Of a DNA stretch of 64,000 nt, positions 12,306-56,392 are shown piece by piece (position 1 is the stretch's first letter; every line of letters begins with the position of its first letter). The stretch comes from an uncultured Bacilli bacterium (GTDB lineage: Bacteria; Bacillota_I; Bacilli_A; RF39; UBA660): positions 23,922 through 87,921 of the forward strand of contig CANRPA010000001.1 in the NCBI GenBank assembly GCA_947632395.1. Reading direction: 5' to 3'. Position numbers and translations under genes: made by a program. A model generated the notes under the pieces. It had not been told where the DNA came from and did not search any database. It saw nothing but the letters and a program-made list of their open reading frames with translations.

Positions 12306-13611
12306 ATCTTTTGTACAAGAATTTGAAATAGAAGAAAAAAACAATAAATATACTGATATTCCTGATTATGATGTTTTTACTAATAAAAAATTATTAGATG
12401 AACTTAGGGTAAAAATAATTCAAAATATAATAGATAATAGTAAGGGTAAAATAAATTCAAAAGTAGTTAGAAAAGAAATAGATAAAACGTTAGAAGGATA
12501 TGATTTAAGTTTAGTAGAACGTAGTTATATAAATAACTTAATAGATAATGAAATAAATGGCTTTGGACCACTTACAGAATTAATTGAAGATCCAAGTATT
12601 ACAGAAATAATGGTTAATGGTACTAACGATATATATATAGAATTAGATGGAAAAATAATAAAAGATGATAGTATATCATTTATAAATGATGAACACATAA
12701 TAAGGACAACTCAAAGGCTTATTCAACCTATAGGAAAAACAATTGATATAAATAATCCTATGGTGGATGCTAGACTTTCAGATGGTTCTAGACTTAATGC
12801 TATAATAGAGCCATTAAGTTTAAAAGGTCCAGTACTTACTATCCGTAAATTTAGGAGTGAACTTGAAAGCATAGATGACTTTTTAAGAAACGGAACGCTT
12901 ACTCCAAATATGGCAAGATTCATAGATGCTTGTGTTAAAAGCAAAATGAATATAATAGTATGTGGTGGTACAGGTAGTGGTAAAACAACACTTTTAAATG
13001 TAATGTCATCATTTATTACAGATGATGAGAGAATAATAACAATAGAAGATGCGGCAGAATTAAAATTAGAACAACAACATGTAATTTCACTTGAAACTAG
13101 AGGATCAAATTATGAGGGAACTGGAGAAGTAACAATTAGAGATTTAGTTATTAATTCACTTCGTATGAGACCAGATAGAATAATAGTAGGTGAAGTTCGT
13201 GGTAAAGAAGCATTTGACATGCTTCAAGCAATGAATACAGGTCATGAAGGTAGTATGACAACACTTCATGCTAATAGTCCAAAGGATGCATTAAATAGAT
13301 TAGAGACAATGGTACTTATGGCAGTAGAAATACCAATTAGTGCTATAAGAGAATATATAGAAAATGCGATAGATATCGTAATAAATATTTCAAGACTTAC
13401 TGATGGTAAAAGAAAAATTACAAGTATTAGTGAAGTAGTAGGATTTGAAAATGATGAAATAAAGTTAAATGAAATATTTGCGTTTAATCAAACAGGAGTA
13501 AAGAAAGATGGAGAAGTTATAGGAGAATTTGTTAAAAATAATGTAACTCCAGAAATTTATAAAAGAATAAAATCGCGTGGAATAACTAATTTAGCTGATA
13601 TGTTTGAGTGA
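12265..13611 (+). CDS. TadA/CpaF-family secretion ATPase (VirB11-like)
   Basis: Walker A GGTGSGKTT, an Asp box, a His box and the characteristic CpaF N-terminal domain. Confidence 0.85.
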   Translation: MIYLKKVREIRMSKSFVQEFEIEEKNNKYTDIPDYDVFTNKKLLDELRVKIIQNIIDNSKGKINSKVVRKEIDKTLEGYDLSLVERSYINNLIDNEINGFGPLTELIEDPSITEIMVNGTNDIYIELDGKIIKDDSISFINDEHIIRTTQRLIQPIGKTIDINNPMVDARLSDGSRLNAIIEPLSLKGPVLTIRKFRSELESIDDFLRNGTLTPNMARFIDACVKSKMNIIVCGGTGSGKTTLLNVMSSFITDDERIITIEDAAELKLEQQHVISLETRGSNYEGTGEVTIRDLVINSLRMRPDRIIVGEVRGKEAFDMLQAMNTGHEGSMTTLHANSPKDALNRLETMVLMAVEIPISAIREYIENAIDIVINISRLTDGKRKITSISEVVGFENDEIKLNEIFAFNQTGVKKDGEVIGEFVKNNVTPEIYKRIKSRGITNLADMFE

Positions 13612-21949: not shown

Positions 21950-22200
21950 TACGTAAACTTTTTGAAAAGTGTTGATTGAGAGAAGTAATAATGTAAACTA
22001 ATTAAAGCGAGTTAGGTATGGTGTAAGCTAACAATAAAGAGCATTATGAATAACACTCATGAACTATTAGCTTGAATATTGAATAGAGTTAATCGGATGC
22101 AACCCGTTAGAAATTGCACGATTTGATAGAATCGGTAAAGAGGTCAATATGACAAATTGGGTGGCACCGCGGAAAAGTAATTCGTCCCAAAGAAAAGGCG
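21950..22200 (+). promoter_or_regulatory. T-box riboswitch leader, probably Asn-specific
   Basis: Stem-I-like GA/AGAGA and AGUA elements (TGATTGAGAGAAGTAA). The conserved T-box sequence AAATTGGGTGGCACCGCGG lies at 22154-22172. Candidate AAC specifier codons sit at 22052-54 and 22062-64. I could not see the terminator helix clearly by eye. Confidence 0.6.
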
Positions 22201-22216
22201 GCTACTACTATAATTT

Positions 22217-22292
22217 GCTCAATTAGCTCAGTCGGTAGAGCGCACGGCTGTTAACCGTTAGGTCGTAGGTTCGAGTCCTACATTGAGCGCCA
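22217..22292 (+). tRNA. tRNA-Asn (GUU)
   Basis: 76 nt. Acceptor stem GCTCAAT / ATTGAGC plus G and CCA. D-arm AGCTCAGTCGGTAGAGC, anticodon loop CTGTTAA (GUU) and T-arm GGTTCGAGTCC. Confidence 0.9.
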
Positions 22293-22299
22293 TTTTAGT

Positions 22300-22375
22300 G
22301 CCTGATTAGCTCAGTCGGTAGAGCGCACGGCTGTTAACCGTTAGGTCGTAGGTTCGAGTCCTACATCAGGCGCCA
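22300..22375 (+). tRNA. tRNA-Asn (GUU), second copy
   Basis: Identical body to the first copy, with acceptor stem GCCTGAT / ATCAGGC plus G and CCA. Confidence 0.9.
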
Positions 22376-22385
22376 TTTAATTAGT

Positions 22386-22412
22386 AACAAGTCTTAGAAC
22401 TTGTTTTTTTAT
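22386..22412 (+). terminator. hairpin plus U-tract between the tRNA-Asn pair and gatC
   Basis: AACAAGT-CTTAGA-ACTTGTT followed by TTTTTTT. Confidence 0.45.
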
Positions 22413-22431
22413 ATTTAAAAGGAGGATTATT

Positions 22432-22725
22432 ATGGTAACTAAAGAAAAACTAAAAGATTATGCTGCAAAACTCATGTTTGATATGGATGATGCAGGATAC
22501 GATAGGACATTAGCAGAATTTGAAACAGTAGAAAAACACATGGCATTAATAGGTGAAATTGAAAACATAGATAATATAGAACCTATGACATTTCCATATG
22601 TTATATATCATGCTCATTTAAGAGAAGATGAAGCAAAAGAATGTCTTACAAGCGAAGAAGTTTTGGCAAATGCTAAAGAAACTAAAGCAAATCAAGTAAA
22701 AGTACCAAAGGTGGTGGGAGAATGA
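22432..22725 (+). CDS. gatC: Asp-tRNA(Asn)/Glu-tRNA(Gln) amidotransferase subunit C
   Basis: 97 aa at the head of the gatCAB operon, coupled to gatA. Confidence 0.85.
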   Translation: MVTKEKLKDYAAKLMFDMDDAGYDRTLAEFETVEKHMALIGEIENIDNIEPMTFPYVIYHAHLREDEAKECLTSEEVLANAKETKANQVKVPKVVGE

Positions 22726-24167
22726 AAACAATAATGGATTTAAGAACTGATTTAGATAATAAATTAGTAACAAGTGAAGAATTATTCAAAAAATCTAATG
22801 AACTTGCACATAAATATCAGGATGAATTTAATCCGTTTGTAACTATAATAGATGAGTATAAAAAAGAAGAAAGTGATTCATTACTTAATGGAATACCTTA
22901 TGCATTGAAGGATAATTTTTCAACTAAAGGAATTCTTTCAACTGCTTCTTCTAATATACTTAAAGATTACGTTCCAGTATATGATGCTACTGCATATAAA
23001 AAATTAAAAGCTGCTGGAGCAGTACTTGTTGGGAAAACCGTACTAGATGAACTTGCTATGGGTGGAACAGGAACTACAGGACACACTGGTATTGTTAGAA
23101 ATCCATGGAATAAAAATCACCAAATAGGTGGCTCTTCTGCAGGAAGCGCTGCAGCAGTCGCACTTGGTATAGTACCATTCGCACTTGGTTCAGATACAGG
23201 AGATTCAATTCGTAAACCAGCTGCATTTGGTGGAGTAGTAGGATTTAAACCAACATATGGTAGAATTTCTAGATATGGTCTTTTTGCTTTCGCATCAAGT
23301 TTAGATCATGTAGGTTGTTTTACTAGATGTGTAAGAGATGCTGCAATTGTTACAGATATATTAAAAGGACAAGATGAACGCGATATGACATCTCTTCCTG
23401 ATGAAACAATAAAATATACAGATATGATAGATAATGATATAAAGGGGAAAAAATTATTTTATATCAAAGAACTAACTGATTTAGATATGTATAAAAATTC
23501 AGGTGAAGAAACACTTGAAATATTAAAGAAATTTAAAGATACAATAGAAAAATGTAAAAGTATAGGTTTTGAAGTAGAAGAAGTATCTTTTGATGAAAAA
23601 TTACTTAAGGCAATATATCCTGCATATATGACAATAAGTTGTGCAGAAGCTACAAGTAATAATTCTAACCTTACTGGAATACCATTTGGTCCAAGAGGTG
23701 AAGGAGATAATATAAATGATATTATGTTTGATGCTAGAACAAAGGGATTTAGTGAATTAATCAAAAGAAGATTTATATTAGGAAGTTATATTTTACAAAG
23801 AGAAAATCAAGAAAGATTATTTAAAAATGCAGGAAGACTTAGAAGAATTATAGTAGATAAAATGAATGAATTATATAAAAAATATGATGCTATGATACTT
23901 CCAGCAAGTGGAGGAATCGCTCCTACGTTTGACTCTGAAATAGATAGAATGTCTCCAAGATATTTAATGTTAGAAAATCATATGGCAATAGGAAATTTTG
24001 GTGGATTTCCAAGCATAACAATACCTAATGGATTTGTTAAAAATATGCCAATTGGAATAAATATAACAGGTAGATGCTTTGAAGATGGACTTACATTAAA
24101 TATAGCAAATAAAATAGAAGAAGCTTTAGGCTTTGGCAAAATAATAAAGGAGGAATATGATGTATAA
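22722..24167 (+). CDS. gatA: amidotransferase subunit A (amidase family)
   Basis: Amidase signature GGSSAGSAAAVA and the Ser-cisSer-Lys region. Confidence 0.9.
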   Translation: MKTIMDLRTDLDNKLVTSEELFKKSNELAHKYQDEFNPFVTIIDEYKKEESDSLLNGIPYALKDNFSTKGILSTASSNILKDYVPVYDATAYKKLKAAGAVLVGKTVLDELAMGGTGTTGHTGIVRNPWNKNHQIGGSSAGSAAAVALGIVPFALGSDTGDSIRKPAAFGGVVGFKPTYGRISRYGLFAFASSLDHVGCFTRCVRDAAIVTDILKGQDERDMTSLPDETIKYTDMIDNDIKGKKLFYIKELTDLDMYKNSGEETLEILKKFKDTIEKCKSIGFEVEEVSFDEKLLKAIYPAYMTISCAEATSNNSNLTGIPFGPRGEGDNINDIMFDARTKGFSELIKRRFILGSYILQRENQERLFKNAGRLRRIIVDKMNELYKKYDAMILPASGGIAPTFDSEIDRMSPRYLMLENHMAIGNFGGFPSITIPNGFVKNMPIGINITGRCFEDGLTLNIANKIEEALGFGKIIKEEYDV

Positions 24168-25581
24168 GGTAGTTATTGGACTTGAAGTTCACTGCGAGGT
24201 AAAAACAAATTCAAAAAACTTTTCTAATTCTAGAAATACATACTCAGAATACCCAAATGAAAACATAGATACAGTAGACATTGGGCTTCCTGGAATTCTT
24301 CCTGTAGCCAATAAAGAGGCATTTAGAAAATCATTAATGATGTCTCTTGCCCTTAATTGTAAAACTCCTGATATAGTAATGTTTGATAGAAAAAATTATT
24401 ATTATCCAGATCTTCCTAAAGGTTATCAGATAACACAAGAAACAAAACCAGTAGGTAGAGATGGTTATGTTATGATTAATGTAAATGGTGAAGATAAAAA
24501 AATATTAATAAATAATATTCACTTGGAAGAAGATACAGCTAGTCTAGATCATTTTGGTAATTATTCATTAATAGATTATAATAGGTCAGGTATACCATTA
24601 CTTGAAACAGTAACAGAACCTTGTATGAATTCAGCAGATGAGGCTATAACTTTCTTAGAGGCTCTTAAAGGAATTTTTCTATATACAGGAGTATCAGAGG
24701 CAAGAACTGATAGAGGACAAATGAGATGCGATGTTAATATATCATTAATGGAAGAAGATGCAACTGAATTTGGTACTAAAGTAGAAATGAAAAATATAAA
24801 TAGTTTTAATAATGTAAGACTTGCTATAGAATATGAAATTAAAAGACAAACTGAGATATTAAAAAGTGGTGGTAAAGTACTTCAAGAAACTAGACGTTTT
24901 GATTCAGAAGACCTAAAAACATATCCAATGCGTTCTAAAGTAGATGCTATAGATTATAAATACTATATAGAACCTAATATACCTCCTATTAAAATTAGTG
25001 ATGATTTAATTGAAGAAATAAAAAAAGAGATACCTATGCTTCAATATGAGAGAGTAGAAAAGTATATGGGTGAATATGGACTATCTAGATATGATTCTGA
25101 AATAATTGTTAAAGATAAAAAAGTTTCAGATTATTTCGAAGAGACAATTAAATTGGGTGCAGATCCAAAATCAAGTGCTAATTGGCTTACAAGTATAATT
25201 TTAGGACATTTAAATAAATATGAAATAACTATAGATGATTTATATTTAACACCTAAAATGCTTTATGAATTAATAAGTATGGTAGATACTGGTAAAATTT
25301 CTTCTAAGCAAAGTAAACAAGTTTTCTTTAAATGTATAGAGGAAAATAAAGAACCTAGTGTTATAGTTAAAGAAATGGGTATGACTCAAATAACAGATGA
25401 CAAAACAATTCGTGATATTGCTATAAGAGTTTTAGATGAACATCCAGAATTAATAGAAGATCATAGAAAAGGTAAAAATACATTTGACTATTTTGTAGGA
25501 CAAGTAATGAAGGAAACAAGAGGTCAAGCAAATCCTAAAGTAACTAGAGATATAATCTTAGAAGAAATGGAGAAAAGATAA
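24157..25581 (+). CDS. gatB: amidotransferase subunit B
   Basis: GatB N-terminus MMYKVVIGLEVHCEV and a C-terminal GatB/YqeY domain. Confidence 0.9.
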   Translation: MMYKVVIGLEVHCEVKTNSKNFSNSRNTYSEYPNENIDTVDIGLPGILPVANKEAFRKSLMMSLALNCKTPDIVMFDRKNYYYPDLPKGYQITQETKPVGRDGYVMINVNGEDKKILINNIHLEEDTASLDHFGNYSLIDYNRSGIPLLETVTEPCMNSADEAITFLEALKGIFLYTGVSEARTDRGQMRCDVNISLMEEDATEFGTKVEMKNINSFNNVRLAIEYEIKRQTEILKSGGKVLQETRRFDSEDLKTYPMRSKVDAIDYKYYIEPNIPPIKISDDLIEEIKKEIPMLQYERVEKYMGEYGLSRYDSEIIVKDKKVSDYFEETIKLGADPKSSANWLTSIILGHLNKYEITIDDLYLTPKMLYELISMVDTGKISSKQSKQVFFKCIEENKEPSVIVKEMGMTQITDDKTIRDIAIRVLDEHPELIEDHRKGKNTFDYFVGQVMKETRGQANPKVTRDIILEEMEKR

Positions 25582-25582
25582 T

Positions 25583-27325
25583 ATGGAAAATAAATATCGT
25601 AGTGTATATTGTGGTAACGTAGATGAATCATATATAGGTAAAGAAGTTAAAGTAGCAGGTTGGATTGCCAATATACGTGATCATGGTGGTGTAATATTTT
25701 TAGATATAAGAGATGAAAAAGGTGTAGTTCAGATAGTAAGTAATGATAATAATATGTTTACAGGTCTTACTAAAGAATCAAGTGTAACAGTTAAAGGTAT
25801 AGTAAGAAAAAGAGATGAAGATGATTATAATGACCATATAAGTACAGGTACTATTGAAATACTTGTAGAAAGTATTGTCGTACTTGGAAAAGCACCTAAT
25901 GAATTACCTTTTGAAGTAATTACCTCAACTAATGTATCTGAAGATATAAGACTTAAATATCGTTATCTAGATCTTAGAAATGATAAAGTTAGAAATAATA
26001 TTAATTTAAGAGCTAAAGTACTTAAATTTTTAAGAAACAAGATGGATTCTATGGGATTTACTGAAGTACAAACTCCAATTATAACAGCATCATCTCCTGA
26101 AGGAGCAAGAGACTTCATAATTCCATCAAGAAAATTTCATGGTAAATTTTATGCTTTACCCCAAGCACCTCAAGTATTTAAAGAAATACTTATGGTAAGT
26201 GGTTTTGATAAATATTATCAAATCGCACCTTGCTTTAGAGATGAAGATTGTAGAAGTGATAGAACATTAGAATTTTATCAGTTGGATTTTGAGATGGCTT
26301 TTGTAGAAGAAGAAGATGTATATAAAGTAGGAGAAGAAATTTTTTACGATACATTTAAAAATTTTTCAAATAAGGAAGTATCACCTAAACCATTTAGAAG
26401 AATTCCATTTAAAGAAGCAATGTTAAAATATGGAACTGATAAACCAGATTTAAGAAATCCACTAGAAATAATAGATATAAGTGAAGTATTTGTAGATAGT
26501 GATTTTAAACCATTTAGAGGAGTATGTGTTAGAGGAATTAAAGTTGATAACATAGGCGATAAATCAAATAGTTGGTTTAATGAAGTAGTAGATTATGCTA
26601 GTAGTATAGGAATGCCTGGAATAGGGTATATAACACTTATGGAAGATGGAAGTTTTAAAGGACCTATCGATAAATTCTTAACTGATGAAGATAGAAAATT
26701 ACTAATAGAAAAAGCTAATTTAAAAACTAATAGTGTATTATTTTTTATAGCAGACAAAAAGGAAAAAGTTGCTGCTAAAAATGCGGGAATGATTAGAACT
26801 GAACTTGGTAGAAAATTAGATTTAATAGATCCAAATAAATTTGAATTCTGTATAATTAATGATTTCCCTATGTTTGAATATAATGATGAAGAAGATAAAT
26901 ATGAATTCTGCCATAATCCATTTAGTATGCCACAGGGAGGAATTAAGGCATATGATAATAATAATATAGATGATATTATTGCTTATCAATATGACTTTGT
27001 TTGTAATGGAAATGAGATGGCATCAGGTGCGGTTAGAAATCACGATATAGAATCATTAAAAAAAGGATTTAGTGTAGTTGGATATGATGAAAACGTACTT
27101 GAAACTAGATTCTCATCACTATATAATGCTTTCAAATATGGTGTACCACCTCATGCAGGAATGGCTCCAGGTATTGATAGAATTATAATGCTTTTACAAG
27201 ATGAACCAAATTTAAGAGAAGTTCAAGCATTCCCAATGAGTGTATCAGGATATGATGCTATGATGAATTGTCCTAGTGAAATATCAGAACAACAATTAAG
27301 GGAAGTACATATTAAAGTAAGATAA
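25583..27325 (+). CDS. aspS: aspartate--tRNA ligase, probably non-discriminating
   Basis: 580 aa. Class II aaRS motifs (FRDE, GLDR), an N-terminal OB anticodon-binding domain and the bacterial insertion domain. Confidence 0.9.
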   Translation: MENKYRSVYCGNVDESYIGKEVKVAGWIANIRDHGGVIFLDIRDEKGVVQIVSNDNNMFTGLTKESSVTVKGIVRKRDEDDYNDHISTGTIEILVESIVVLGKAPNELPFEVITSTNVSEDIRLKYRYLDLRNDKVRNNINLRAKVLKFLRNKMDSMGFTEVQTPIITASSPEGARDFIIPSRKFHGKFYALPQAPQVFKEILMVSGFDKYYQIAPCFRDEDCRSDRTLEFYQLDFEMAFVEEEDVYKVGEEIFYDTFKNFSNKEVSPKPFRRIPFKEAMLKYGTDKPDLRNPLEIIDISEVFVDSDFKPFRGVCVRGIKVDNIGDKSNSWFNEVVDYASSIGMPGIGYITLMEDGSFKGPIDKFLTDEDRKLLIEKANLKTNSVLFFIADKKEKVAAKNAGMIRTELGRKLDLIDPNKFEFCIINDFPMFEYNDEEDKYEFCHNPFSMPQGGIKAYDNNNIDDIIAYQYDFVCNGNEMASGAVRNHDIESLKKGFSVVGYDENVLETRFSSLYNAFKYGVPPHAGMAPGIDRIIMLLQDEPNLREVQAFPMSVSGYDAMMNCPSEISEQQLREVHIKVR

Positions 27326-31176: not shown

Positions 31177-31878
31177 TTAATCATAATAATCAATTAAAAA
31201 ATCATTATTATTTAACTTTTGTAATTTTTTAGTTTTTTCAAAAACTTCTTTTTTTTCATCGGTTAGTTTTTCTTCTGTACAATCTTCAAATACATCATAA
31301 AAAGAAATATCAAATAATAAAGAAATTGTAGTTATATTAAACATAAATACATCTACTGAATAATCTAAATCATTTTTACTTAAATATTCTAAAACTAATT
31401 TATTTAAATTAGTTGGAGTTTTATTAGATTTATAAATAGAGTCATCAAAATCAATAATTTTTATTTTAGATCTTTTATATAAAATATTAAATGGATTTAA
31501 ATCCATATGTATTAGATTATTTTTATGCATATTTAAAATAATTTTTTTAGCATTTTTTAGCATTTTAATTCTTTCATTTAAATTTAAATCATCTGAATCA
31601 CAAATTGGTGAGTAACCATTTAAATATTTTGTGACATAACCAGAAAATTTATTTTTATCATATACTAAAAACTCTGGAAAAATTAAATTTTTATCCTTAA
31701 TAGTAGATACTGTTTCTAAAGTATTAATTTGTTCTTCACTGAAATTCATAATTTCTTTATATAAAAAAATTTTATCATTAAATATACAAGTATAAAGACC
31801 ATTTTTATTACTAAACATATCACTAGAAGGCATAATACTATTAAGTTCACTTTTATTTACTATTTTCATTCGTTTCAC
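31177..31878 (-). CDS. protein-kinase-like / phosphotransferase-fold protein (APH/ChoK/Kdo-kinase-like)
   Basis: Catalytic-loop-like LIHMDLNPFNIL followed by KIIDFDDS (DFG-like). 233 aa, with no clear glycine loop. Confidence 0.45.
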   Translation of the reverse strand: MKRMKIVNKSELNSIMPSSDMFSNKNGLYTCIFNDKIFLYKEIMNFSEEQINTLETVSTIKDKNLIFPEFLVYDKNKFSGYVTKYLNGYSPICDSDDLNLNERIKMLKNAKKIILNMHKNNLIHMDLNPFNILYKRSKIKIIDFDDSIYKSNKTPTNLNKLVLEYLSKNDLDYSVDVFMFNITTISLLFDISFYDVFEDCTEEKLTDEKKEVFEKTKKLQKLNNNDFLIDYYD

Positions 31879-31948: not shown

Positions 31949-33250
31949 GTGTATAATAGTCACGAAAGAGGGATTGCTATGTTTATTGATGAAGTAATAA
32001 TAGAACTAAATGCAGGTCGTGGTGGAAATGGATGTATGGCATTTAGGCGTGAAAAATATATTGAAATGGGAGGACCATATGGTGGAAATGGTGGACATGG
32101 AGGAAATATAATTTTCAAAGTTGATGAAGGTCTAAATACACTAATAGATTTAAGATATAAAAAAATATATAAAGCAAGTAATGGTGCGCATGGTGAAGGA
32201 AAAGGTTGCAATGGTAAAAATGCAGAAGATCTTATAATAAAAGTACCACTAGGTACAGTGATAACTGATATAGAAACTAATTTAATAATAGGTGATTTAA
32301 CTAGAAAAAATGATGAGGTTATCGTTGCACAAGGAGGTCGTGGTGGTCGTGGTAATATGGCCTTTGCAACAAAAAATAATCCAGCACCTGCATTTTGTGA
32401 AAATGGGGAACCAGGTGAAGTTAGAAAAGTAAAAGTTGAACTTAAACTTCTTGCAGATGTAGGACTTGTTGGTATGCCAAGTGTAGGTAAATCTACATTT
32501 ATAAGTAAAGTTAGTGCAGCTAAACCTAAAATTGCCGCATATCATTTTACAACTTTAACTCCAAATTTAGGAGTAGTAAGGACAAAAGATAATAGATCAT
32601 ATACAGTTGCAGATCTTCCAGGACTTATTGAAGGGGCTTCACTAGGAGAAGGTCTTGGTGATAAATTTTTAAAACATATTGAAAGAACTAGGGTAATCGC
32701 ACATATAATAGATATGTCTGGCTCTGAAGGAAGAAATCCTTATGATGATTATAAAATAATAAATAAAGAATTAGAAAACTTCAATAAAAAAATAATGGAT
32801 AAACCTCAAATAGTAATAGCAAACAAGATGGATATGAACAACTCTTTAAAAAATTTAGAAGAATTTAAAAAACACGTAAAATGTGACGTATATCCTATAA
32901 GTGCGATAAATGGACAAGGCTTAGATGAAGTATTAATATGTCTTGCAGATATGTTAGAAAAGATAGAAAAACAACCTTTATATGAAGAAGAAAAATTTGA
33001 AAGTCATGTACTTTATAAATTTAAAGAAGAACAACCATTTAAAATAATAAAAGAAGGAGATACTTTTGTAGTTAAAGGTGATGAAATAGAAAGAATACTT
33101 AAAATGACATGGTTTGCTAGTGATGAAGCATTTAAAAGATTCTCTAAAAAATTAGTTAAACTTGGTATAGATGAAAAATTAAAAGAAATGGGTATAAAAG
33201 AGGGAGATATAGTAAGAATACTAGATTACGAATTTGAATACAAAGAATAG
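31949..33250 (+). CDS. obg: GTPase Obg
   Basis: Obg fold with glycine-rich N-domain GRGGNGCMAFRRE...GGNGG, a G-domain (GMPSVGKST, DLPG) and an Obg-CT domain. GTG start. Confidence 0.95.
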   Translation: MYNSHERGIAMFIDEVIIELNAGRGGNGCMAFRREKYIEMGGPYGGNGGHGGNIIFKVDEGLNTLIDLRYKKIYKASNGAHGEGKGCNGKNAEDLIIKVPLGTVITDIETNLIIGDLTRKNDEVIVAQGGRGGRGNMAFATKNNPAPAFCENGEPGEVRKVKVELKLLADVGLVGMPSVGKSTFISKVSAAKPKIAAYHFTTLTPNLGVVRTKDNRSYTVADLPGLIEGASLGEGLGDKFLKHIERTRVIAHIIDMSGSEGRNPYDDYKIINKELENFNKKIMDKPQIVIANKMDMNNSLKNLEEFKKHVKCDVYPISAINGQGLDEVLICLADMLEKIEKQPLYEEEKFESHVLYKFKEEQPFKIIKEGDTFVVKGDEIERILKMTWFASDEAFKRFSKKLVKLGIDEKLKEMGIKEGDIVRILDYEFEYKE

Positions 33251-35069
33251 TTCACAGGATGGTAAAATGAATTACGATTTAAAAATAATAAAGAAAAAAT
33301 ATGGCGAAAATATGATGCATTTATGTAGAACTTTATTTCCAAGTATAATAGAAACTCCAGGCTTACTTTTGAGTATACTTGAATCTAAATTTTCATATAA
33401 CAGATATTTATGTGATGATATAATAAAAAATAATTTGCAAAATGAATTTAAAAATTATATTTATGGTTTAGCAGATATGAAAAAAGAGAAAGAAATAACA
33501 GATAAAAGTGTAAAAGAGTTATTAAATTTAGCTGGATATGATTTTTACGAGTGTAAAACAGAAAAAGATATACAAAAATTTAAAAAATACTTTGCTAATG
33601 GAGAAGAGTTATGTACGTTTAATGGTGGAAGATTAAAAAAATGTTATGTATTTTTTGCTGTAAAGAAAAATGTAGATCAAATAAAAAGAGAAAATTTTTC
33701 TATGCCAAAAAGAGAAGATGATTATGGTACATCAGTAATAAGTATACAATTTACTTATGGTGATTTAAATACATTATCAATAAAAAATAGATATAATCAT
33801 AAAGTCGTTAATCCAGATGCAACATTTTCAAACAATCTAGAAAATATAATTCCAGGTTTAACTTATGCTTTTGAAAAAGAATATAATTTAAATATTGAAT
33901 GTAATGACCCTGATTTTTCAATATTTTGCTATAATTATGCAGGTGCTGAAGGAAAAATATATAAATATAATTATGAAATTAATAATATATACTATTGTCC
34001 AGATAACATAATAATAGATAATTTTAAAGTAATAGATAAATATAAAGAAAAAAGCAGATACTTAATTATAGATTACTTTATACTAGATTTAGTAGAGAAA
34101 AAAATATTTACCTATGAAAATGATAAAGAAATAGAAGATAGTTTTATATCATCTATAGGACAGATTAAAACTATTAATATAGTTAAAACAAATGGTATAA
34201 AAAGAATAAATATCAATGATAAAGTAGTAATTAGTATAGATAGTACAAACAAAATAATTGGTTATACAAATAATGAGATAAAAAAAATCGACGATAAATT
34301 CTTATATTATAATATTTATTTAAATCAAATATGTATAAATAATGTAGAACAAATAGGAGATGATTTCCTATTTTGCAATTTAGATTTAAAAGAAATAAAC
34401 TTAGCTAAAACTAAATATATAGGTAATAATTTTTTACGTTCTAATGAAATATTATATAAATTATATTCACCTAAATTAGAAATTATTGGAAATGATTTTC
34501 TATATAGTAATTTAGAAATTAGTATACTAAATTTACCTAGTTTAAAACTAATAAAAAATAATTTTATTAGTTATAATAAAAAAATATCCAAAATATTTTT
34601 ACCAAAAACTGAAGAAATAGGAAATCGTTTTTTAGAACATAATTTAGGTTTAGAAAATATATACTTACCAAATATCATGAAAATAGGTAATAATTTTATG
34701 AAAAAAAACATAATACTAAAAATAATATACTTACCTAAAGTAATCGAAATAGGTAATGATTTTCTTTTTGAAAATATGGGTGTTTCTATAATAAATTTTC
34801 CTTTATTAAGAAGCATTGGTAATAATTTTTTCTTTTACAACACCAATATCGAAGAAATATTCCTTTCAAAAACAGAAGATATAGGAGATTCATTTGTTTA
34901 TAATATAGAACATTTAAAAATAGTTTATTTACCTAAAATAAAAAAAGTTGGGATTGGCTTTTTAATGAACACAAAGAAAATAGATAAGTTAAAAATTAGA
35001 GAAATAGAAAACAATAATATATTATATCTATGTTCAAATAATGAAAACGCAAAAGTGTATACTAAATAA
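33234..35069 (+). CDS. uncharacterised conserved N-terminal domain fused to BspA-type leucine-rich repeats (paralogue 1)
   Basis: The C-terminal ~260 aa are 21-23-aa repeats of the type L..I..IGNNFL.......I.LP. The N-terminal ~270 aa are shared with the next gene. No signal peptide. The likely true start is the ATG near 33267 (MNYDLKII), which follows AGGATGG. Confidence 0.6.
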   Translation: MNTKNSSQDGKMNYDLKIIKKKYGENMMHLCRTLFPSIIETPGLLLSILESKFSYNRYLCDDIIKNNLQNEFKNYIYGLADMKKEKEITDKSVKELLNLAGYDFYECKTEKDIQKFKKYFANGEELCTFNGGRLKKCYVFFAVKKNVDQIKRENFSMPKREDDYGTSVISIQFTYGDLNTLSIKNRYNHKVVNPDATFSNNLENIIPGLTYAFEKEYNLNIECNDPDFSIFCYNYAGAEGKIYKYNYEINNIYYCPDNIIIDNFKVIDKYKEKSRYLIIDYFILDLVEKKIFTYENDKEIEDSFISSIGQIKTINIVKTNGIKRININDKVVISIDSTNKIIGYTNNEIKKIDDKFLYYNIYLNQICINNVEQIGDDFLFCNLDLKEINLAKTKYIGNNFLRSNEILYKLYSPKLEIIGNDFLYSNLEISILNLPSLKLIKNNFISYNKKISKIFLPKTEEIGNRFLEHNLGLENIYLPNIMKIGNNFMKKNIILKIIYLPKVIEIGNDFLFENMGVSIINFPLLRSIGNNFFFYNTNIEEIFLSKTEDIGDSFVYNIEHLKIVYLPKIKKVGIGFLMNTKKIDKLKIREIENNNILYLCSNNENAKVYTK

Positions 35070-35123
35070 AAATATTGAAAAATATTTTTTTAATTGTTAA
35101 AAAAAGTGATATACTTATAGTAG

Positions 35124-36374
35124 GTGAAAACTATTATGGATGATTTAATAAAAATAAAAAATAAATACGGTGAAGAAATGATGCATTTTGCTCGTAAATC
35201 TTTTCCTGTTATATTAGAGACACCTGGTTTACTTTTTAATTTGTTTGAAACACATTTTGGAAATTATAGATATTTATATAATGATATTGTAGAAAATGAT
35301 TATAAAGCAAATTTCATTGAATATATACATAGTTTAATAGATATAAAAATTGAAAGAGAAAATATGAATAAAACACCACAAGAATTATTAAGTGAAGCAG
35401 GATATAATTTTTATGAATGTAAAACTGAAGAAGAGATACAATCATTTAGAAAGTATTATGAAAAAGATGAAGAACTATGTACATTTAAAGAAGGAAACAG
35501 ATTAGATCAATGTTATGTATTTTTTGCTGTAAAGAAAAATGTAGATCAAATAAAAAGAGAAAATTTTGACTATCCTAGTAGACAAGATGAGTATGGAACA
35601 TCTGTTATAAGTATACAATTTGAAAAGGGAAAATATAATACATTATCAATAAAAAATAGATATAACGACAAAATCGCTAATCCAGATGCAACATTTTCAA
35701 ACAATCTAGAAAATATAATACATGGTTTAACTTATGCATTTGAAGAAACTTATAATTTAAGAATATTTCAAAATGAAAATGTAAATTTTGAATTACCCAA
35801 TTATATAAGAGCAGAAGATGGTAGATTTTATAAATATAATTATGCAATAGATAAAGTATATTATTGTCCAGATAATATAATAATAGATAACAACAAAGTA
35901 ATAAGAGATTATAATTTAGAAAAAGAAAGATATTTAATTATAGATTATTTTATATTGGATTTGCACGAAAAAAAACTAAAGTTATATGATTCGTCAATAA
36001 ACGATGCTTTTTTGAATGATTTTATAGGTATAAGCAAAATAAATATAATAAAATTAGGCGATAAAAAAATAATTAATATAGATGATGGTAATATAATAAT
36101 TGAAATAGATAGAGATAATAGAATAGTAAAATATGTTAATAATAAAGTAAAATATGTTGGAGATATGTATTTATATAGAAATTTATATTTAAAGAGTCTA
36201 ACATTAAATGAGTTGGAATTTGCAGGATTATTTTTCTTAAATACAAATTGTGTTTTAGATGAAATAAATATGCCTAAATTAAAAGCAAAAGGAGAATACT
36301 TTTTATATAGTAATCCTACAATAAGAGATAAAATAATATTTAATGATGATAACGAGAGGAGTAAGGCATGTTAA
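35124..36374 (+). CDS. same N-terminal domain with a shorter LRR tail (paralogue 2)
   Basis: About 50% identity to the upstream gene over the N-domain, sharing ETPGLL, YECKTE, CYVFFAVKKNVDQIKRENF, YGTSVISIQF, NPDATFSNNLENII, YYCPDNIIIDN and RYLIIDYFILDL. The likely start is ATG 35136 (MDDLIKIK). Confidence 0.6.
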   Translation: MKTIMDDLIKIKNKYGEEMMHFARKSFPVILETPGLLFNLFETHFGNYRYLYNDIVENDYKANFIEYIHSLIDIKIERENMNKTPQELLSEAGYNFYECKTEEEIQSFRKYYEKDEELCTFKEGNRLDQCYVFFAVKKNVDQIKRENFDYPSRQDEYGTSVISIQFEKGKYNTLSIKNRYNDKIANPDATFSNNLENIIHGLTYAFEETYNLRIFQNENVNFELPNYIRAEDGRFYKYNYAIDKVYYCPDNIIIDNNKVIRDYNLEKERYLIIDYFILDLHEKKLKLYDSSINDAFLNDFIGISKINIIKLGDKKIINIDDGNIIIEIDRDNRIVKYVNNKVKYVGDMYLYRNLYLKSLTLNELEFAGLFFLNTNCVLDEINMPKLKAKGEYFLYSNPTIRDKIIFNDDNERSKAC

Positions 36375-36631
36375 AAAAATTACAAATAATAAATATAGAT
36401 AGATGCAATTACACATTATTAGATAATGATAATAACCAACATAATGTTAGTATAATTTTTTATGAATTTGACCCTAAATTAAATGATTACATATATATAG
36501 ATGAAAAAATAATAAAGGAAGTAAACATTTATAACTTTGGACCTATTAAAGATAAAAAAATAAATGAAGATGAAATAATAAAAATAACAAGAGGTAAAGA
36601 AGAGTATTATTTACAAAGATATTATGGGTAA
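36368..36631 (+). CDS. small hypothetical protein, translationally coupled to paralogue 2
   Basis: 87-aa ORF whose start overlaps the upstream stop by 7 nt. A terminator follows it. Confidence 0.35.
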   Translation: MLKKLQIINIDRCNYTLLDNDNNQHNVSIIFYEFDPKLNDYIYIDEKIIKEVNIYNFGPIKDKKINEDEIIKITRGKEEYYLQRYYG

Positions 36632-36660
36632 AGTGCTTGAAAAAAGCACCTTTTTTTTAT
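36632..36660 (+). terminator. rho-independent terminator
   Basis: GTGCTT-GAAAAA-AGCAC followed by CTTTTTTTT. Confidence 0.55.
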
Positions 36661-36681
36661 ATAATATTTATGGTGATTTAA

Positions 36682-39026: not shown

Positions 39027-39833
39027 ATGGTTATATATAAATTAGGTATAAAAGATAGAAAAACATTTGATTTAAGTAGCATAATCACAATAGATGCAAA
39101 AAATAGTCTAACAATGATTGATAAGTTTACAAGTAATTTTGATAGTGAACAAGATTTAAAGAAATATTTGTTAGATAAAAAAATAATAAACAACGAAGAT
39201 TATTATAGTAAAATAAATATAATATATCAAAATAATAAAGTGAATAAAACATTACCAGTGGTTTATTCAAAAGGAAGTAAAATGATAAATATTTTATCAG
39301 TAATAAATAGATTGAATCATTTAATATTTGATGAAGCCAACAAAGAATTTATAAAAGAATTATTAGATTATTATGACTATAATATAGAAAACAACCCTCA
39401 GGCAGGAAATATGTTCAATTTAAAATTAATTTTAAGCGATTTAGAATATTTTGGTAAAGATGCATTAGTTTTTGATAGAAAAATAATAGAAATTACAATA
39501 CAAAGAATTGTAGATGTAGCAGCTCATAAATACGATAAAAAAACTAAGTCACAAAAATTTAATTATAGAGGTTTAAGAGATTTAGCAATGATTATATATA
39601 AATTTGAAGAGTTAGAACAATTAAGAAAAATTAAACACAATTTAGAAGAAGATAACAGTGTTATTAAAGAAAAAAATATAGATAAATTTATATTAAGTAG
39701 TGAAGGAGATCCTGATTTTCCATTTAATTCAGAAGAAGAAAAACAATATTTACGACTTCAAGAACAAGAATATGAGGAATGGTTGGAAAAAATAGAAGAA
39801 GAAACTAAAGAACGTGAAAAAATATTAAAATAA
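39027..39833 (+). CDS. hypothetical protein with an acidic coiled-coil C-terminus
   Basis: 268-aa ORF with no recognisable domain. Confidence 0.35.
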   Translation: MVIYKLGIKDRKTFDLSSIITIDAKNSLTMIDKFTSNFDSEQDLKKYLLDKKIINNEDYYSKINIIYQNNKVNKTLPVVYSKGSKMINILSVINRLNHLIFDEANKEFIKELLDYYDYNIENNPQAGNMFNLKLILSDLEYFGKDALVFDRKIIEITIQRIVDVAAHKYDKKTKSQKFNYRGLRDLAMIIYKFEELEQLRKIKHNLEEDNSVIKEKNIDKFILSSEGDPDFPFNSEEEKQYLRLQEQEYEEWLEKIEEETKEREKILK

Positions 39834-48103: not shown

Positions 48104-49363
48104 ATGAAGAAAAAAGTCATATTAATCGTATTATTTTTAATATTAATAAGTTCCCTAACAGTAACTGTTATATTATACAATAAAAATGAAAGAGATAAAA
48201 AAATAGCAGAACAAAAGCGTATTGAAACAGCAATTAATAATATAAAAAAGCATTATAGTAACAATGTAATAACTACAATTGACACTAAATTATATAAAAA
48301 GGACAATGAAGAATATAAGGTAAGTGGAGAAATAAGTAAAGATATTAAAATAACACTTAAAGAAGAGACAATTGATGAAAATACTAAATACTTTTATATT
48401 CCAGAATTAGATTCATATATATCATATAATGATGTAAGTCCAAGTGAGGAAAAAGTAAAAGATGATAGATACAAATATTATATTTCCTTTAATAAAAATA
48501 TAAAAACTAAAGATTCTACTAGTTTTTATGATAAAGATGGAAATCTATTATATACATTAAATAAACCATTTGAATTTAAAGTACTTGTTATGGATACTGA
48601 TAAATATGGAGTTGTATTTAATGATGAATTAGTATATATAAAAACTGATGATGTAGAAGAAGTAATAGATGCTGATAATGGTCAAAGTAATAGATCAAAA
48701 ATTAAAACTCTTTTTTACCATTTTCTATATGATCCACAAAAAGCCGTATGTGATCAAATAATATGTCTTACATTAGATCAATTTGAGGCACAATTAAAAT
48801 ATTTAAATGAAAATGATTATTTTACACTTAAAATGGAAGAACTTGAGATGTATTTAGATGGTAAAATAAATATACCTCAAAAAAGTATTGCGCTAACGAT
48901 TGATGATGCTACAATTATAGATGAGCAAGCCTTAAGATTACTTGAAAAATATGAAATAAATGCTACAGCATTTGTAATAACAGGTTGGGTAGATCTTAAT
49001 ACAGTAAGTTCACCTTATTTGGATTTAGAATCACATACTGATTTAATGCATAATCAATACGAATGTAAAGGAATGGGATTACAAGGTGGAGGAATATTAT
49101 GTCTTCCTGAAAGTAAAGTTTTAGAAGATTTAAGAACTAGCCAAGAAAAACTTGGTGGAAGTAAATATTTTGCATATCCATTCTTCGATTACAATGAAAG
49201 AGCAATTAGACTTTTAAAAGAAGCCGGATTTACAATGGCATTTATAGGTCAAGCAAGCACATATGGTGATTCTTATCCTAAATCAACAGATAAAATGAAA
49301 ATACCAAGATTAGGAATATTTTCAGACACAACTTTAGATGAATTTATTTCATATGTACAATAA
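48104..49363 (+). CDS. polysaccharide deacetylase family protein (NodB domain), membrane-anchored
   Basis: N-terminal TM and a C-terminal NodB domain with the motifs LTIDDAT and ESHTDLMH. Confidence 0.7.
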   Translation: MKKKVILIVLFLILISSLTVTVILYNKNERDKKIAEQKRIETAINNIKKHYSNNVITTIDTKLYKKDNEEYKVSGEISKDIKITLKEETIDENTKYFYIPELDSYISYNDVSPSEEKVKDDRYKYYISFNKNIKTKDSTSFYDKDGNLLYTLNKPFEFKVLVMDTDKYGVVFNDELVYIKTDDVEEVIDADNGQSNRSKIKTLFYHFLYDPQKAVCDQIICLTLDQFEAQLKYLNENDYFTLKMEELEMYLDGKINIPQKSIALTIDDATIIDEQALRLLEKYEINATAFVITGWVDLNTVSSPYLDLESHTDLMHNQYECKGMGLQGGGILCLPESKVLEDLRTSQEKLGGSKYFAYPFFDYNERAIRLLKEAGFTMAFIGQASTYGDSYPKSTDKMKIPRLGIFSDTTLDEFISYVQ

Positions 49364-49377
49364 ATATTTATATTTAC

Positions 49378-49404
49378 AGTAACAAGTTAAAAAAACTTGT
49401 TACT
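49378..49404 (+). terminator. rho-independent terminator after the deacetylase gene
   Basis: GTAACAAGT-TAAAAAA-ACTTGTTAC followed by TTTTATT. Confidence 0.55.
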
Positions 49405-49453
49405 TTTATTGTTAAAAAAAATAAAGTATGTTAGAATAATAGTAGGTGATAAT

Positions 49454-49627
49454 ATGAATGGCTTAAGTAAGAAAGATAAAATAATAGTTTTAATTTTGTA
49501 TTTAATTTTAATTGCATTAATAGTTCTTTTAGTATTTAGTATAGAAAACCAAAGACAAACAATAATTGATAATAATACAACAAATTATTATAGTTATAAT
49601 AATAATTTTAATGATGAATTTATGTAA
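49454..49627 (+). CDS. small single-TM protein
   Basis: MNGLSKKDK followed by a TM helix. AGGTGA RBS. Confidence 0.3.
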   Translation: MNGLSKKDKIIVLILYLILIALIVLLVFSIENQRQTIIDNNTTNYYSYNNNFNDEFM

Positions 49628-49642
49628 TATTGAGGAAATTTT

Positions 49643-50179
49643 ATGAAAAAAATTAAAAGTTCAACTCAAAAAAAATGGATAATTGAAATAATACTATTAT
49701 CATTTGTAATATCAGTTACATTTAGTTTAATATCAGAAACTGCTATACCAAATGTGGGGATAATAATAGGAATATTTATATGTTTAATATTTATAATAAT
49801 AGGAATTATCTTTGATATGGTTGGTGTTTCCGTTACAGCAAGTGATGAAAGTATATTTCATTCAATGTCTAGTCGCAATGTAAAAGGTGCTAAAATGGCA
49901 GTAAAATTAAAAAAGAATGCATCTAAAGTATCTAGTTTTTGCAATGATGTAGTTGGAGATATATGTGGTATTATATCAGGTTCTACTGGAACAGTAATTA
50001 CATTAAAAATAGTGGAAAAGTTTAATTTTAATAATCTTTCAACAACAATTATAATAATGGGAATTATATCTGCAATTACTATAGGTGGTAAAGCAATTGT
50101 TAAAGAATTTGCTATTAAAAGAAGTAATGAAATTTTATTTAGATTTGCAAAAATATTAAATATATTCGATAGAAAGTAG
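49643..50179 (+). CDS. membrane protein with a DUF21/CNNM-like transmembrane domain (no CBS/CorC domains)
   Basis: 178 aa. The profile TASDESIFHSMSSRNVKGAKMAVKLKKN...VVGDICGIISG resembles the DUF21 N-domain of CorC/CNNM transporters. Confidence 0.4.
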   Translation: MKKIKSSTQKKWIIEIILLSFVISVTFSLISETAIPNVGIIIGIFICLIFIIIGIIFDMVGVSVTASDESIFHSMSSRNVKGAKMAVKLKKNASKVSSFCNDVVGDICGIISGSTGTVITLKIVEKFNFNNLSTTIIIMGIISAITIGGKAIVKEFAIKRSNEILFRFAKILNIFDRK

Positions 50180-50186
50180 GTAATAT

Positions 50187-51119
50187 ATGAATAAACGTGG
50201 TTTTACACTTGTAGAACTTTTAGGGGTAATTGTTATTTTAATAATTGTAATCGCTTTAGCATACCCTAGCGTAATATTAGTAATAGATTCTGGTAAAGAG
50301 ACAAGTGAACAACAACAAATAAATGATATACTTATGAGTGCTTATGATTATTCAATAAAAAATACTGAATATTTACCTGATAAAGATGATACAACTTACA
50401 TAACTTTATCACAATTAAAAAATGATGGTTTACTAAAAATAAGTATAATTAATCCAATATCAGAAGAGGAATATTTTGATGATTTAGTTATAAGTATAAA
50501 AAATATTGGATCTGAATATGCTGAAAAAAGTAAATATTCAAAAAAAACAGGTGATTATTTATATACTTTAGAAATAGAAAAAACACAAGAGCAAGATTAC
50601 ATAATAAAAAAACCTACCATAGAACTTATAGGTCTTGATTCTAACTCAAATGATAATTATGTATCTACTATAGATGTAAATACAGATTATGAGGAAGCTA
50701 GATATAAAGCAACTGATAAAAATGGTAAAGATTTAACTGATAAAGTAATAATTAATATACTTTATGATGGTAAAGCAGTAAAAGATATTGATACTACGAA
50801 GGCAGGAATATATTATGTAAATTATACAGTAGTAGATGATGAAGGTTATGCTTCAATGGTCACAAGAAGTATTATCATAACAGATGATATGGAACCAGTT
50901 TTAACTGTTCCAACTTCAACAACAATAAGCATAAATGATAGCTCATTTAATTTACTAGATAAATCAGAAGTTAAATGTTCAGATAATAGTGGTAAATGTG
51001 ATATTACATATACAGGTGAAATAAAATTTGGAACTGCTGGCAAATATGTAATAGTATATACAGCAAAAGATCCAAGTGGTAATACTACCAAAGCAGAAAG
51101 AGTAATAACAGTTCAGTAA
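50187..51119 (+). CDS. type IV pilin-like protein (prepilin-type N-terminal cleavage/methylation domain) with two C-terminal DUF5011-like Ig domains
   Basis: MNKRGFTLVELLGVIVILIIVIALAYPS is a canonical class-III signal peptide (G|FTLVE). The tail contains two repeats of D..P.I......V..G..Y....A.D..G.DLT....G.Y...Y...D..GN. Confidence 0.7.
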   Translation: MNKRGFTLVELLGVIVILIIVIALAYPSVILVIDSGKETSEQQQINDILMSAYDYSIKNTEYLPDKDDTTYITLSQLKNDGLLKISIINPISEEEYFDDLVISIKNIGSEYAEKSKYSKKTGDYLYTLEIEKTQEQDYIIKKPTIELIGLDSNSNDNYVSTIDVNTDYEEARYKATDKNGKDLTDKVIINILYDGKAVKDIDTTKAGIYYVNYTVVDDEGYASMVTRSIIITDDMEPVLTVPTSTTISINDSSFNLLDKSEVKCSDNSGKCDITYTGEIKFGTAGKYVIVYTAKDPSGNTTKAERVITVQ

Positions 51120-51263
51120 TTACTCTTTTTATTTTTTAAAATTTAAAATAATATAAATTTTCTAAAGAATAAAAGGAAATTATAATGAAATTAAGTAAAA
51201 ATATATATGATTTTAAATATAATATATTTTTTATATAAAATAAGTGATTTTCATTTGTTTTCT

Positions 51264-51296
51264 TTGACTTTATTTTTCAAAATATGCTATAATGTG
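51264..51296 (+). promoter_or_regulatory. sigma-A promoter TTGACT-N18-TGcTATAAT upstream of parE
   Basis: Read directly from the sequence. Confidence 0.45.
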
Positions 51297-51310
51297 GTAG
51301 GTGAATAGAT

Positions 51311-53221: not shown

Positions 53222-53230
53222 GAGTAAAGT

Positions 53231-55774: not shown

Positions 55775-55786
55775 AGTACGAAGAAA

Positions 55787-55810
55787 TTCGTATTTTATTT
55801 ATTATAAAAA
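55787..55810. terminator. terminator between the convergent parC and 55817-56353 genes
   Basis: TACGAA-GAAA-TTCGTA followed by a T-run. Confidence 0.45.
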
Positions 55811-55816
55811 ATATTA

Positions 55817-56353: not shown

Positions 56354-56392
56354 AAAAAACTCCTTTCTATAAATACTAATAATGGTGATAAT

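Follow-up and report, generated by a model that had tools for sequence, protein, structure and literature searches.

Gene organization downstream of obg

The stretch analysed here (the window) comprises 64,000 nucleotides (nt) of DNA from an uncultured Bacilli bacterium (GenBank assembly GCA_947632395.1, contig CANRPA010000001.1, positions 23,922 to 87,921 of the forward strand). Downstream of the obg GTPase gene it carries two adjacent genes, A and B, each of which encodes a conserved N-terminal domain (the head) followed by a tail of leucine-rich repeats (LRRs), and a third, small gene, C. Judged from sequence comparison, A and B belong to a large, previously undescribed family of two-part proteins, here called head-LRR proteins, in uncultured low-GC gut Bacilli. 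The features of the region are as follows; lengths are given in amino acid residues (aa) and ORF denotes an open reading frame.

31177..31878, minus strand: small protein-kinase-like gene, divergent from obg (Pfam Pkinase 8e-8, RIO1 5e-7)
31949..33250, plus strand: obg GTPase gene (Pfam GTP1_OBG 1e-60, MMR_HSR1, DUF1967)
33267..35069, plus strand: gene A, head-LRR protein, 600 aa from ATG (ORF, ribosome-binding site, public gene call)
33267..34151, plus strand: head domain of A, about 295 aa (alignment with B and the family; all universally invariant residues present)
34287..35012, plus strand: LRR tail of A, 11 units of 22 aa (IGnnFLxxNxxLxxIxLPxLxx)
35136..36374, plus strand: gene B, head-LRR protein, 412 aa from ATG (an alternative GTG at 35124 gives 416 aa)
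35136..36020, plus strand: head domain of B (the sequence used for the structure model)
36156..36350, plus strand: LRR tail of B, 3 units (starting at aa 345, 367 and 388 of the 416-aa ORF)
36368..36631, plus strand: gene C, 87-aa partner protein ending ...QRYYG, translationally coupled to B
36633..36659, plus strand: intrinsic-terminator-like hairpin, GTGCTT-GAAAA-AAGCAC, followed by the T-run CTTTTTTTT

Both of the adjacent ORFs that a preliminary description of this DNA had credited with a common N-terminal domain were found, and alignment shows them to be clear paralogues, 56% identical over 397 aa (E 8e-132). Gene A has an ATG at 33267, 16 nt past the TAG of obg (33248-33250), with the ribosome-binding site AGGA 7 nt in front of it. 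An alternative TTG start at 33234 would extend the protein to 611 aa; it was considered less likely because the ATG has the AGGA site and matches the public gene calls, in which A has 600 aa. The overlap of A with the obg stop codon, as first described, holds with the TTG start and disappears with the likelier ATG. Gene B most likely starts at ATG 35136, which has an AGGTGA site 8 nt upstream and is likewise the start in the public gene calls; the database protein P0001, 100% identical to B, has 412 aa. The ATG of gene C (36368) overlaps the 3' end of B by 7 nt (B TAA at 36372-36374) and is preceded by GAGAGGAG, which agrees with the earlier proposal that this small ORF is translationally coupled to B.

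The hairpin and T-run at 36633-36659 form the first terminator-like site downstream of obg, and none was predicted between obg and A. Co-transcription of obg, A, B and C is plausible and was inferred from the 16-nt gap and from the absence of a predicted terminator before 36633; the four genes probably form a single transcript that ends there. The obg gene is upstream context, outside the head-LRR family, with which A, B and C probably share a transcription unit. A promoter-like sequence, TTGAAA-17-TATAAT, at 36637-36665 overlaps the terminator and would serve the next gene, which encodes a SpoU-family methylase.

The head domain

The head was screened against the Pfam, NCBIfam, PADLOC and PHROGs libraries, none of which holds a model for it. 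Sequence and profile searches of the PDB with the head, with C, with the phage family described below and with a whole giant phage ORF returned nothing below E 0.1, and phmmer with full-length A returned LRR proteins only, aligned with the tail. The earlier statement that the N-terminal domain could be assigned to no family has therefore stood: neither a curated family nor a solved fold was matched, and no housekeeping family emerged. A profile of the head recovered A and B by hmmsearch at 2.8e-148 and 9.1e-150, respectively.

Conservation was measured in 149 representatives sharing no more than 50% identity, with residues numbered from the Met of B at 35136. Seventeen positions are invariant (Y90, C95, E112, C115, R122, R149, Y153, S156, Q161, R175, Y176, N177, D184, L191, I194, G197 and L198) and about 55 are at least 90% conserved. 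When phage sequences were included, 28 positions were invariant: K8, G12, G89, E112, C115, T116, R122, R149, D151, Y153, G154, S156, Q161, S171-N177, D184, T186, L191, G197, L198, Y242, D275 and K279. The motifs common to bacterial and phage heads are E-x-x-C-T, R, P-x-R-x-D-x-Y-G-T-S, Q, S-I-K-N-R-Y-N-(H) and D-x-T. Residue 178 is His in 90% of the sequences, phage included, and Asp in B. The sequence blocks quoted in the preliminary description (CYVFFAVKKNVDQIKRENF, YGTSVISIQF, NPDATFSNNLENII, YYCPDNIIIDN and RYLIIDYFILDL) are all present and fall at positions conserved across the family. The four Cys residues that it called invariant are indeed common to A and B (in YEC, ELC, CYVFF and YYCP); family-wide, two are invariant, one is conserved in 92% and one in 66% of sequences. 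C115 is the sole universally invariant Cys of the head, the bacterial YEC Cys (C95) not being universal. The pattern resembles what is seen at active sites or ligand-binding sites.

The head of B was modelled with AlphaFold2 from the 149 sequences, giving a pLDDT (predicted local distance difference test) of 92.3 and a pTM (predicted template modelling score) of 0.62. An earlier model built from nine sequences had a pLDDT of 80 with low confidence in the most conserved loop, and was replaced. In the model, aa 2-66 are helical, aa 90-206 make up an alpha/beta core and a beta-hairpin region spans aa 223-283. Fold comparison covered solved structures and BFVD; Foldseek of the model against BFVD gave nothing (E>=0.02, TM-score about 0.25). 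The combination of a significant GNAT fold match and the coenzyme A pyrophosphate-binding motif A was not found. We take the head to be either a new fold or one that has diverged past recognition.

The preliminary description had also pointed to a faint resemblance to ADP-ribosyltransferases with STS-like and ExE-like motifs. G-T-S (residues 154-156) is nearly invariant and the head has conserved Arg residues, as such an enzyme might; the split beta-sheet NAD fold with a catalytic Glu after the STS motif was not found, so that the hint did not hold up and this assignment is extremely improbable.

The LRR tails

The tail of A consists of ten exact 22-residue units from aa 374, preceded by a degenerate first unit at aa 352, which comes close to the 12 or so units originally estimated; the three units of B agree with the original count. 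The family consensus is I-G-d-n-F-L-x-x-N-x-x-L-x-x-I-x-L-P-n-L-x-x, in which the x positions are highly variable. A looser repeat pattern gives counts of 0-16 units for single proteins; as those scoring zero proved to have variant repeats or to be truncated, LRRs are present in every full-length member.

The repeats had been described as BspA-type. Pfam LRR_5 (PF13306) does not score on A or B, despite their exact 22-aa periodicity. Relatives do score on it (4e-19 to 2e-33), and with the phage cassette included the range extends to 2e-44; the tail of A also has a weak match (1.4e-4) to the LRR protein of PDB entry 4fdw. The assignment of the A and B tails to the BspA type rests on these two observations. 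Pfam hits to Tugs, Stealth_CR2, Glyoxalase_5 and PF28551 in relatives were rejected as spurious, all of them lying inside the repeat region.

Repeat number is plastic, even over short times. In two near-identical strains, the proteins encoded at L055:5986-7779 and L056:5986-7713 (L numbers designate the loci compared) share 99.8% identity, yet one of them has a single, exactly duplicated 22-aa unit more than the other (LPNATNIGYNFLSNNTSLTSID). The pair shows directly that a repeat unit was gained or lost in frame. One sub-lineage has near-identical, homogenised units and proteins of 553, 562, 575 and 630 aa. Many head-LRR proteins (e.g. L018:6001-7449 and L026:4068-5720) have Lys/Arg-rich ends (...KKGRR, ...NKRKRR), with or without a C gene downstream.

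Family size, distribution and tandem arrays

A profile built from nine heads was run against 1.84 billion cluster representatives and returned 1260 members at E<=1e-3 (779 at E<=1e-30), each member being a cluster at 50% identity. The 150 representatives listed had total lengths of 357-857 aa; nearly all had the head starting in the first few residues, and only two had it starting beyond about residue 30. Family size, the tandem arrays, the fast evolution, the R-x-Y-G end of C and the phage homologues described below are additions to what was first reported; the literature searched held no relevant description of the family.

No signal peptide was apparent in the 150 representatives. In A and B the lack of one, as first noted, was checked upstream of the called starts: before the upstream stop codon there is room for no more than 11 further residues in A and 4 in B, and no hydrophobic segment is present. 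Among 268 family proteins a transmembrane-like segment was found in three and an LPXTG motif in none. By these predictions the head-LRR family is without the export or anchoring signals of BspA-like surface adhesins.

At least 542 stretches encode the head in the one-genome-per-species GTDB contigs. The best 75 of these loci come almost all from metagenome-assembled genomes, carry labels that include uncultured Bacilli, Erysipelotrichaceae, Tenericutes, Mollicutes, Acholeplasmataceae, 'Clostridium sp. CAG:609', 'CAG:914' and Candidatus Coprovivens, and were sampled from rabbit, Hadza human, ruminant, deer and goat guts. The host genomes are presumably those of RF39-like lineages. Across 76 bacterial loci 136 head genes were counted, on the same strand within a locus and in tandem arrays of up to seven, and single contigs carry 9-10 head genes (e.g. 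L029 plus L071, L041 plus L052). The neighbours of the arrays are ordinary housekeeping genes that differ from locus to locus. A tblastn search with the head and with a 574-aa phage protein against GenBank phages and PLSDB plasmids gave no match.

The region was compared with its two closest relatives, the syntenic loci L002 and L003. Identity to L002 is 56% for A, 69% for B and 74% for C, against 93% for pyrG, 90% for the SDF-family transporter and 89% for obg; A is equally distant from the first and the second head gene of L002. The picture of divergence in L003 is similar, with two head genes kept and no C. The kinase-like gene on the other side of obg is likewise divergent: its identity to the syntenic orthologues is 60% and 54%, whereas pyrG, the SDF-family transporter and obg, which flank it, reach 81-93%. 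Because A, B, C and the kinase-like gene diverge between flanks conserved at 89-93%, the region is a fast-evolving island in a conserved backbone.

The position of the genes between obg and spoU-rimM-trmD raised the alternative of a housekeeping role tied to Obg and ribosome assembly. The 16-nt gap after obg, the lack of a terminator until past C and the repetition of the order obg-head-head in L002 and L003 would fit it. However, that order recurs in these two loci only, so that the linkage holds in 3 of the 76 loci, the window contig and its two closest relatives, and is therefore not a property of the family; elsewhere the arrays adjoin unrelated genes. An identity of 56-69%, against 89% for obg, and variation in copy number are also unlike housekeeping genes. 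Conserved linkage to obg, spoU, rimM or trmD was rejected on comparison of the loci, and the lack of it largely refutes this alternative, which is given almost no credence.

The partner protein C

Iterated searching turned up C-like ORFs (87-110 aa) at 27 of the 76 loci, always on the same strand, starting within a few bases of the stop codon of a head-LRR gene and usually last in the array. Two more distant C proteins, looked up independently, again lay directly after a head-LRR gene. The C family comprises 128 clusters; 110 of the 120 proteins listed end exactly in R/K-x-Y-G followed by the stop codon, and R84, Y86 and G87 are invariant in an alignment of 23 sequences. C is thus a genuine partner, tightly linked yet not obligatory. 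In one subgroup (P0318-P0352; P numbers designate database proteins) about 30 residues follow the usual ...KRYYG end, a Gln codon replacing the stop; L018 keeps the normal stop.

C matched nothing in Pfam, NCBIfam, PADLOC, PHROGs or the PDB. In two loci (L077:9441-9983 and L044:7593-8135) it is fused behind a DUF1292 domain (PF06949; 26.0 and 24.1 bits, cutoff 24) in 180-aa proteins that retain the RYYG end; C by itself matches neither DUF1292 nor any other family. We know of no function for DUF1292. Homology of C to ubiquitin or to part of the head was tried with hhalign and rejected, nothing being found. On inspection, the head genes that precede C also did not prove to be a special subclass marked by a C-terminal tail of their own, and this notion was rejected. 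No C-like ORF was seen near the phage head homologues.

A small, translationally coupled gene that always lies directly downstream of a head-LRR gene invited comparison with a toxin-antitoxin or toxin-immunity module, in which the head would be a toxic enzyme, C its neutraliser and the LRRs a modulator of targeting. C evolves fast, as neutralisers may, and its invariant free C-terminus could plug an active site. Against this, C is present in the 27 loci only, at roughly one copy per array of up to five head genes, and L003 has two head genes and no C, so the pairing is not obligate. The search with C gave 128 clusters, against 4130 hits for full-length B at E<=1e-3 (only 8000 candidates scored); the phage homologues stand without C; and no toxin or antitoxin model of PADLOC, Pfam or NCBIfam matched A, B or C. 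Such a module is improbable.

The R-x-Y-G-COOH end could also be that of a ubiquitin-like tag with a C-terminal Gly, the head-LRR proteins being ligases by analogy with IpaH/SspH and having the domain order reversed. The universally invariant Cys (C115) and the pairing of a constant, catalytic-looking head with a variable LRR tail accord with this scheme. Yet the profile comparison with ubiquitin was negative, and the pattern of C, judged by eye from its sequence, seems all-beta, without the long helix of the beta-grasp fold; no E1-like or E2-like gene was found in the array neighbourhoods examined, and most arrays have no C. A protein-tagging system is thus very improbable.

Phage homologues

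The preliminary description had proposed a search for the N-terminal domain alone or with other partners. Such proteins were found in phages: 43 viral loci of IMG/VR encode head homologues (28-39% identity; hmmsearch E 1e-30 to 1e-41), and they fall into two groups.

The first group consists of ORFs of 3,550-3,741 aa on contigs of 44-70 kb. Their head lies at about aa 1420-1740 or aa 1905-2220, and LRR units with the 22-aa period of the bacterial tails, 12 to about 22 of them, come straight after it (LRR_5 4e-32 and 2e-44). Residues 8-593 of A align end-to-end with aa 1913-2529 of a 3741-aa phage ORF (31% identity, E 5e-73). The head and LRR cassette is the only part that can be aligned between the two subgroups of the giant ORFs, which makes it a mobile module of these mosaic proteins. 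Immediately downstream of the giant ORF comes the gene for TerL, the large terminase subunit (phrog_6681, 9e-74); its product shares 29% identity with TerL proteins of cultured Flavobacterium and Cellulophaga phages, of which the Flavobacterium ones are named podoviruses. One of the cultured Flavobacterium podoviruses, Elemovirus (L127, NC_055853.1), has at record positions 48718-59802 an ORF of 3,694 aa annotated as 'structural protein'. Parts of the giant ORFs resemble proteins of about 3,700 aa that bear this annotation in other Elemovirus genomes, where the record positions correspond, and in Tenacibaculum phage Gundel_1. The giant head and LRR proteins of phages are probably virion-borne. 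Pfam recognised only LRR_5 in them, and neither a Pfam-defined polyvalent-protein domain nor a zincin-like peptidase. The cassette was not found in GenBank phages and is unreported in the literature searched.

The second group consists of very abundant proteins of 558-585 aa, recorded as 'hypothetical protein [Caudoviricetes sp.]', on contigs of 93-208 kb. In these the head is N-terminal and is followed by an unrelated C-terminal part of about 300 aa, without LRRs. The genes lie in accessory regions, with a ParB-like gene nearby in several loci. In L120 a head-only gene lies directly downstream of an NsnA-like DUF262 nuclease gene (6338-7504; PADLOC 4e-32), and a ThsB-like TIR gene (13132-13542; 3e-13) follows 3.5 kb downstream of the head-only gene. 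This grouping looks like a defence-gene cluster that the viral element carries. Its nuclease and TIR neighbours are not conserved in the other viral loci.

Comparison with known systems

The tail resembles that of BspA-type LRR proteins (Tannerella forsythia BspA; Bacteroides 4fdw and 4fd0) in its LRR_5-type units of about 22 residues. BspA proteins are surface or secreted proteins with signal peptides, whereas the head-LRR family is without signal peptide or anchor and has a constant N-terminal head of 295 aa.

A variable LRR recognition module joined to a constant domain with an invariant Cys recalls, by analogy, the 'novel E3 ligase' (NEL) effectors IpaH, SspH and SlrP. The domain order is reversed, however, and no similarity of sequence or fold to the NEL domain was found. 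Those effectors are type III secreted by Proteobacteria, while the head-LRR proteins come from gut Bacilli of Gram-positive lineage and from phages.

The plan of a constant signalling or effector head with a variable repeat sensor is shared with TLRs, plant and animal NLRs, lamprey VLRs and bacterial STAND/Avs proteins, and the head-LRR genes resemble LRR immune receptors further in their tandemly duplicated, fast-evolving arrays and plastic repeat number. They differ from these receptors and from STAND/Avs proteins in having no NTPase, TIR, death-fold or other known signalling domain, and their arrays are not in defence islands. In its presumed mode of action the family is closest to an LRR receptor or effector; the nearest analogies are the IpaH-type combination of LRRs with a Cys enzyme and the TLR/NLR-type combination of a head with LRRs; on the definitions of these groups the head-LRR proteins fall into neither.

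As a module of mosaic ORFs of about 3,600 aa beside TerL, the phage cassette is comparable to polyvalent proteins (PMC5512222) or giant virion proteins of phages, such as the N4-like virion RNA polymerase and the 3,694-aa protein of Elemovirus; the bacterial head-LRR genes, in contrast, are single-module, free-standing and chromosomal. Iyer et al. 2017 (PMC5512222) make no mention of LRRs. The likeness to DUF1292 proteins concerns C only and is limited to the two fusions given above. In our rating the head and C belong to no described family, the tail is a known repeat type, and the family as a whole seems to lie outside the known kinds.

Proposed function and the chief rival

The reading favoured here, tentatively, is that the head-LRR proteins are cytoplasmic modules combining an enzyme with recognition and used in phage-host conflict. 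The LRR tail would recognise a variable protein or ligand, and the head would act on the target so selected, or be switched by it. The arena may be either defence or counter-defence. A role in conflict was inferred because phages carry the cassette within giant proteins and also have the head alone in proteins of accessory regions. The LRR solenoid diversifies by tandem gene duplication and by gain and loss of single 22-aa units. C, with its free R-x-Y-G C-terminus, is seen as an accessory partner made in step with the last gene of the array; it could be a regulator, cofactor or substrate.

Several observations weigh against a role in phage-host conflict. Screening of A, B and C with the PADLOC-DB 2.0 models gave no match at E<=1, and PADLOC was negative on eight neighbours of two bacterial arrays. 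The bacterial arrays lie among housekeeping genes and not in recognisable defence islands, and C is missing from many of them, the syntenic L003 included, and is therefore not obligatory. Known bacterial defence genes rarely occur as 7-10 paralogues per genome, and BspA-type LRRs are typical of surface adhesins. The giant phage ORFs offer no evidence of ejection, 'structural protein' being the GenBank annotation of distant relatives. In one member, P0136, a partial LysM motif lies between head and LRRs (aa 293-319; 29.9 bits, cutoff 20.9). LysM is usually found outside the cytoplasm; in the 268 proteins inspected, nothing else hints at an association with peptidoglycan or at an extracytoplasmic location.

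The chief rival, itself judged rather unlikely, is a family of surface or secreted adhesins or effectors whose LRRs bind host mucus, host cells or other microbes, like those of BspA-like proteins. The head would then serve export, anchoring or wall binding by a non-classical route, or the proteins would be placed on the spore surface from the mother cell; in phages the cassette of the giant virion protein would serve adsorption. This rival draws on the LRR_5 repeats of the relatives, the LysM insert of P0136, the host-associated life and low-GC genomes of the organisms, and the fact that quickly varying multigene families are typical of surface antigens; a SpoIIR gene adjoins one array, and the giant phage ORFs lie in the packaging and structural region, in keeping with their matches to annotated structural proteins. 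It has to contend with the N-terminal position of the head in nearly all representatives and with the scarcity of export and anchoring signals reported above, whereas other surface proteins of the same genome have hydrophobic N-termini (e.g. the ORF at 43062). The enzyme-like invariance of polar and charged residues and the conserved Cys would be needless in a mere export tag, and LRR-less head proteins occur in the accessory regions of phages.

A bolder form of the conflict reading was also considered and is held to be unlikely. In it the head-LRR proteins would be new intracellular LRR recognition enzymes, parallel to the LRR immune receptors of eukaryotes, with a catalytic fold not seen before that is built around the cluster of invariant Cys, Arg, Tyr and Asp residues; the giant virion cassette of phages would be a counter-weapon or the ancestral weapon, and C a dedicated cofactor or substrate.

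The head defines a strongly conserved family of 1260 clusters for which neither curated libraries nor solved structures offer an explanation, and the head-LRR genes are among the most expanded gene families in uncultured, small-genome gut Bacilli of humans, rabbits and ruminants, with at least 10 copies on one contig in some genomes. The phage cassette ties the family to virus-host interaction and provides two experimental entry points, one bacterial and one viral. Should the head be an enzyme aimed by LRRs, it would amount to a bacterial and phage counterpart of LRR immune recognition on a new catalytic fold; should it serve export or anchoring instead, it would represent a new route of adhesin display in gut bacteria of Gram-positive lineage. 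Either outcome would explain a substantial slice of the protein 'dark matter' of gut metagenomes.

The kinase-like gene and other features of the window

The divergent gene at 31177-31878 had been called kinase-like from its sequence, and the profile matches bear this out: Pkinase scored 32.4 bits (cutoff 31.7) and RIO1 29.9 bits (cutoff 22). Its translation shows HMDLNPFN and IDFDD, corresponding to the HxDxxxxN and DFG-like motifs of the protein kinase superfamily. A homologue at L058:5247-5984, an unrelated locus, immediately precedes and partly overlaps a head-LRR gene of the same strand, which hints at a possible functional link between the kinase-like gene and the head-LRR family.

A 268-aa protein without family match is encoded at 39027-39833; it too evolves fast, being 46% identical to its counterpart in L003; in the same comparison spoU, rimM, trmD and an adjacent 151-aa protein gave 67-87%. 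The window has a GC content of about 25%. At 21963-27325 a T-box leader (Rfam, 124.6 bits) directly precedes two tRNA-Asn(GTT) genes (22217-22292 and 22300-22375), followed by a 97-aa ORF in the position of gatC (22432-22725) and by ORFs matching GatB and AspRS (Pfam). This arrangement looks like a T-box-controlled operon for tRNA-dependent synthesis of Asn-tRNA, with the tRNA genes included.

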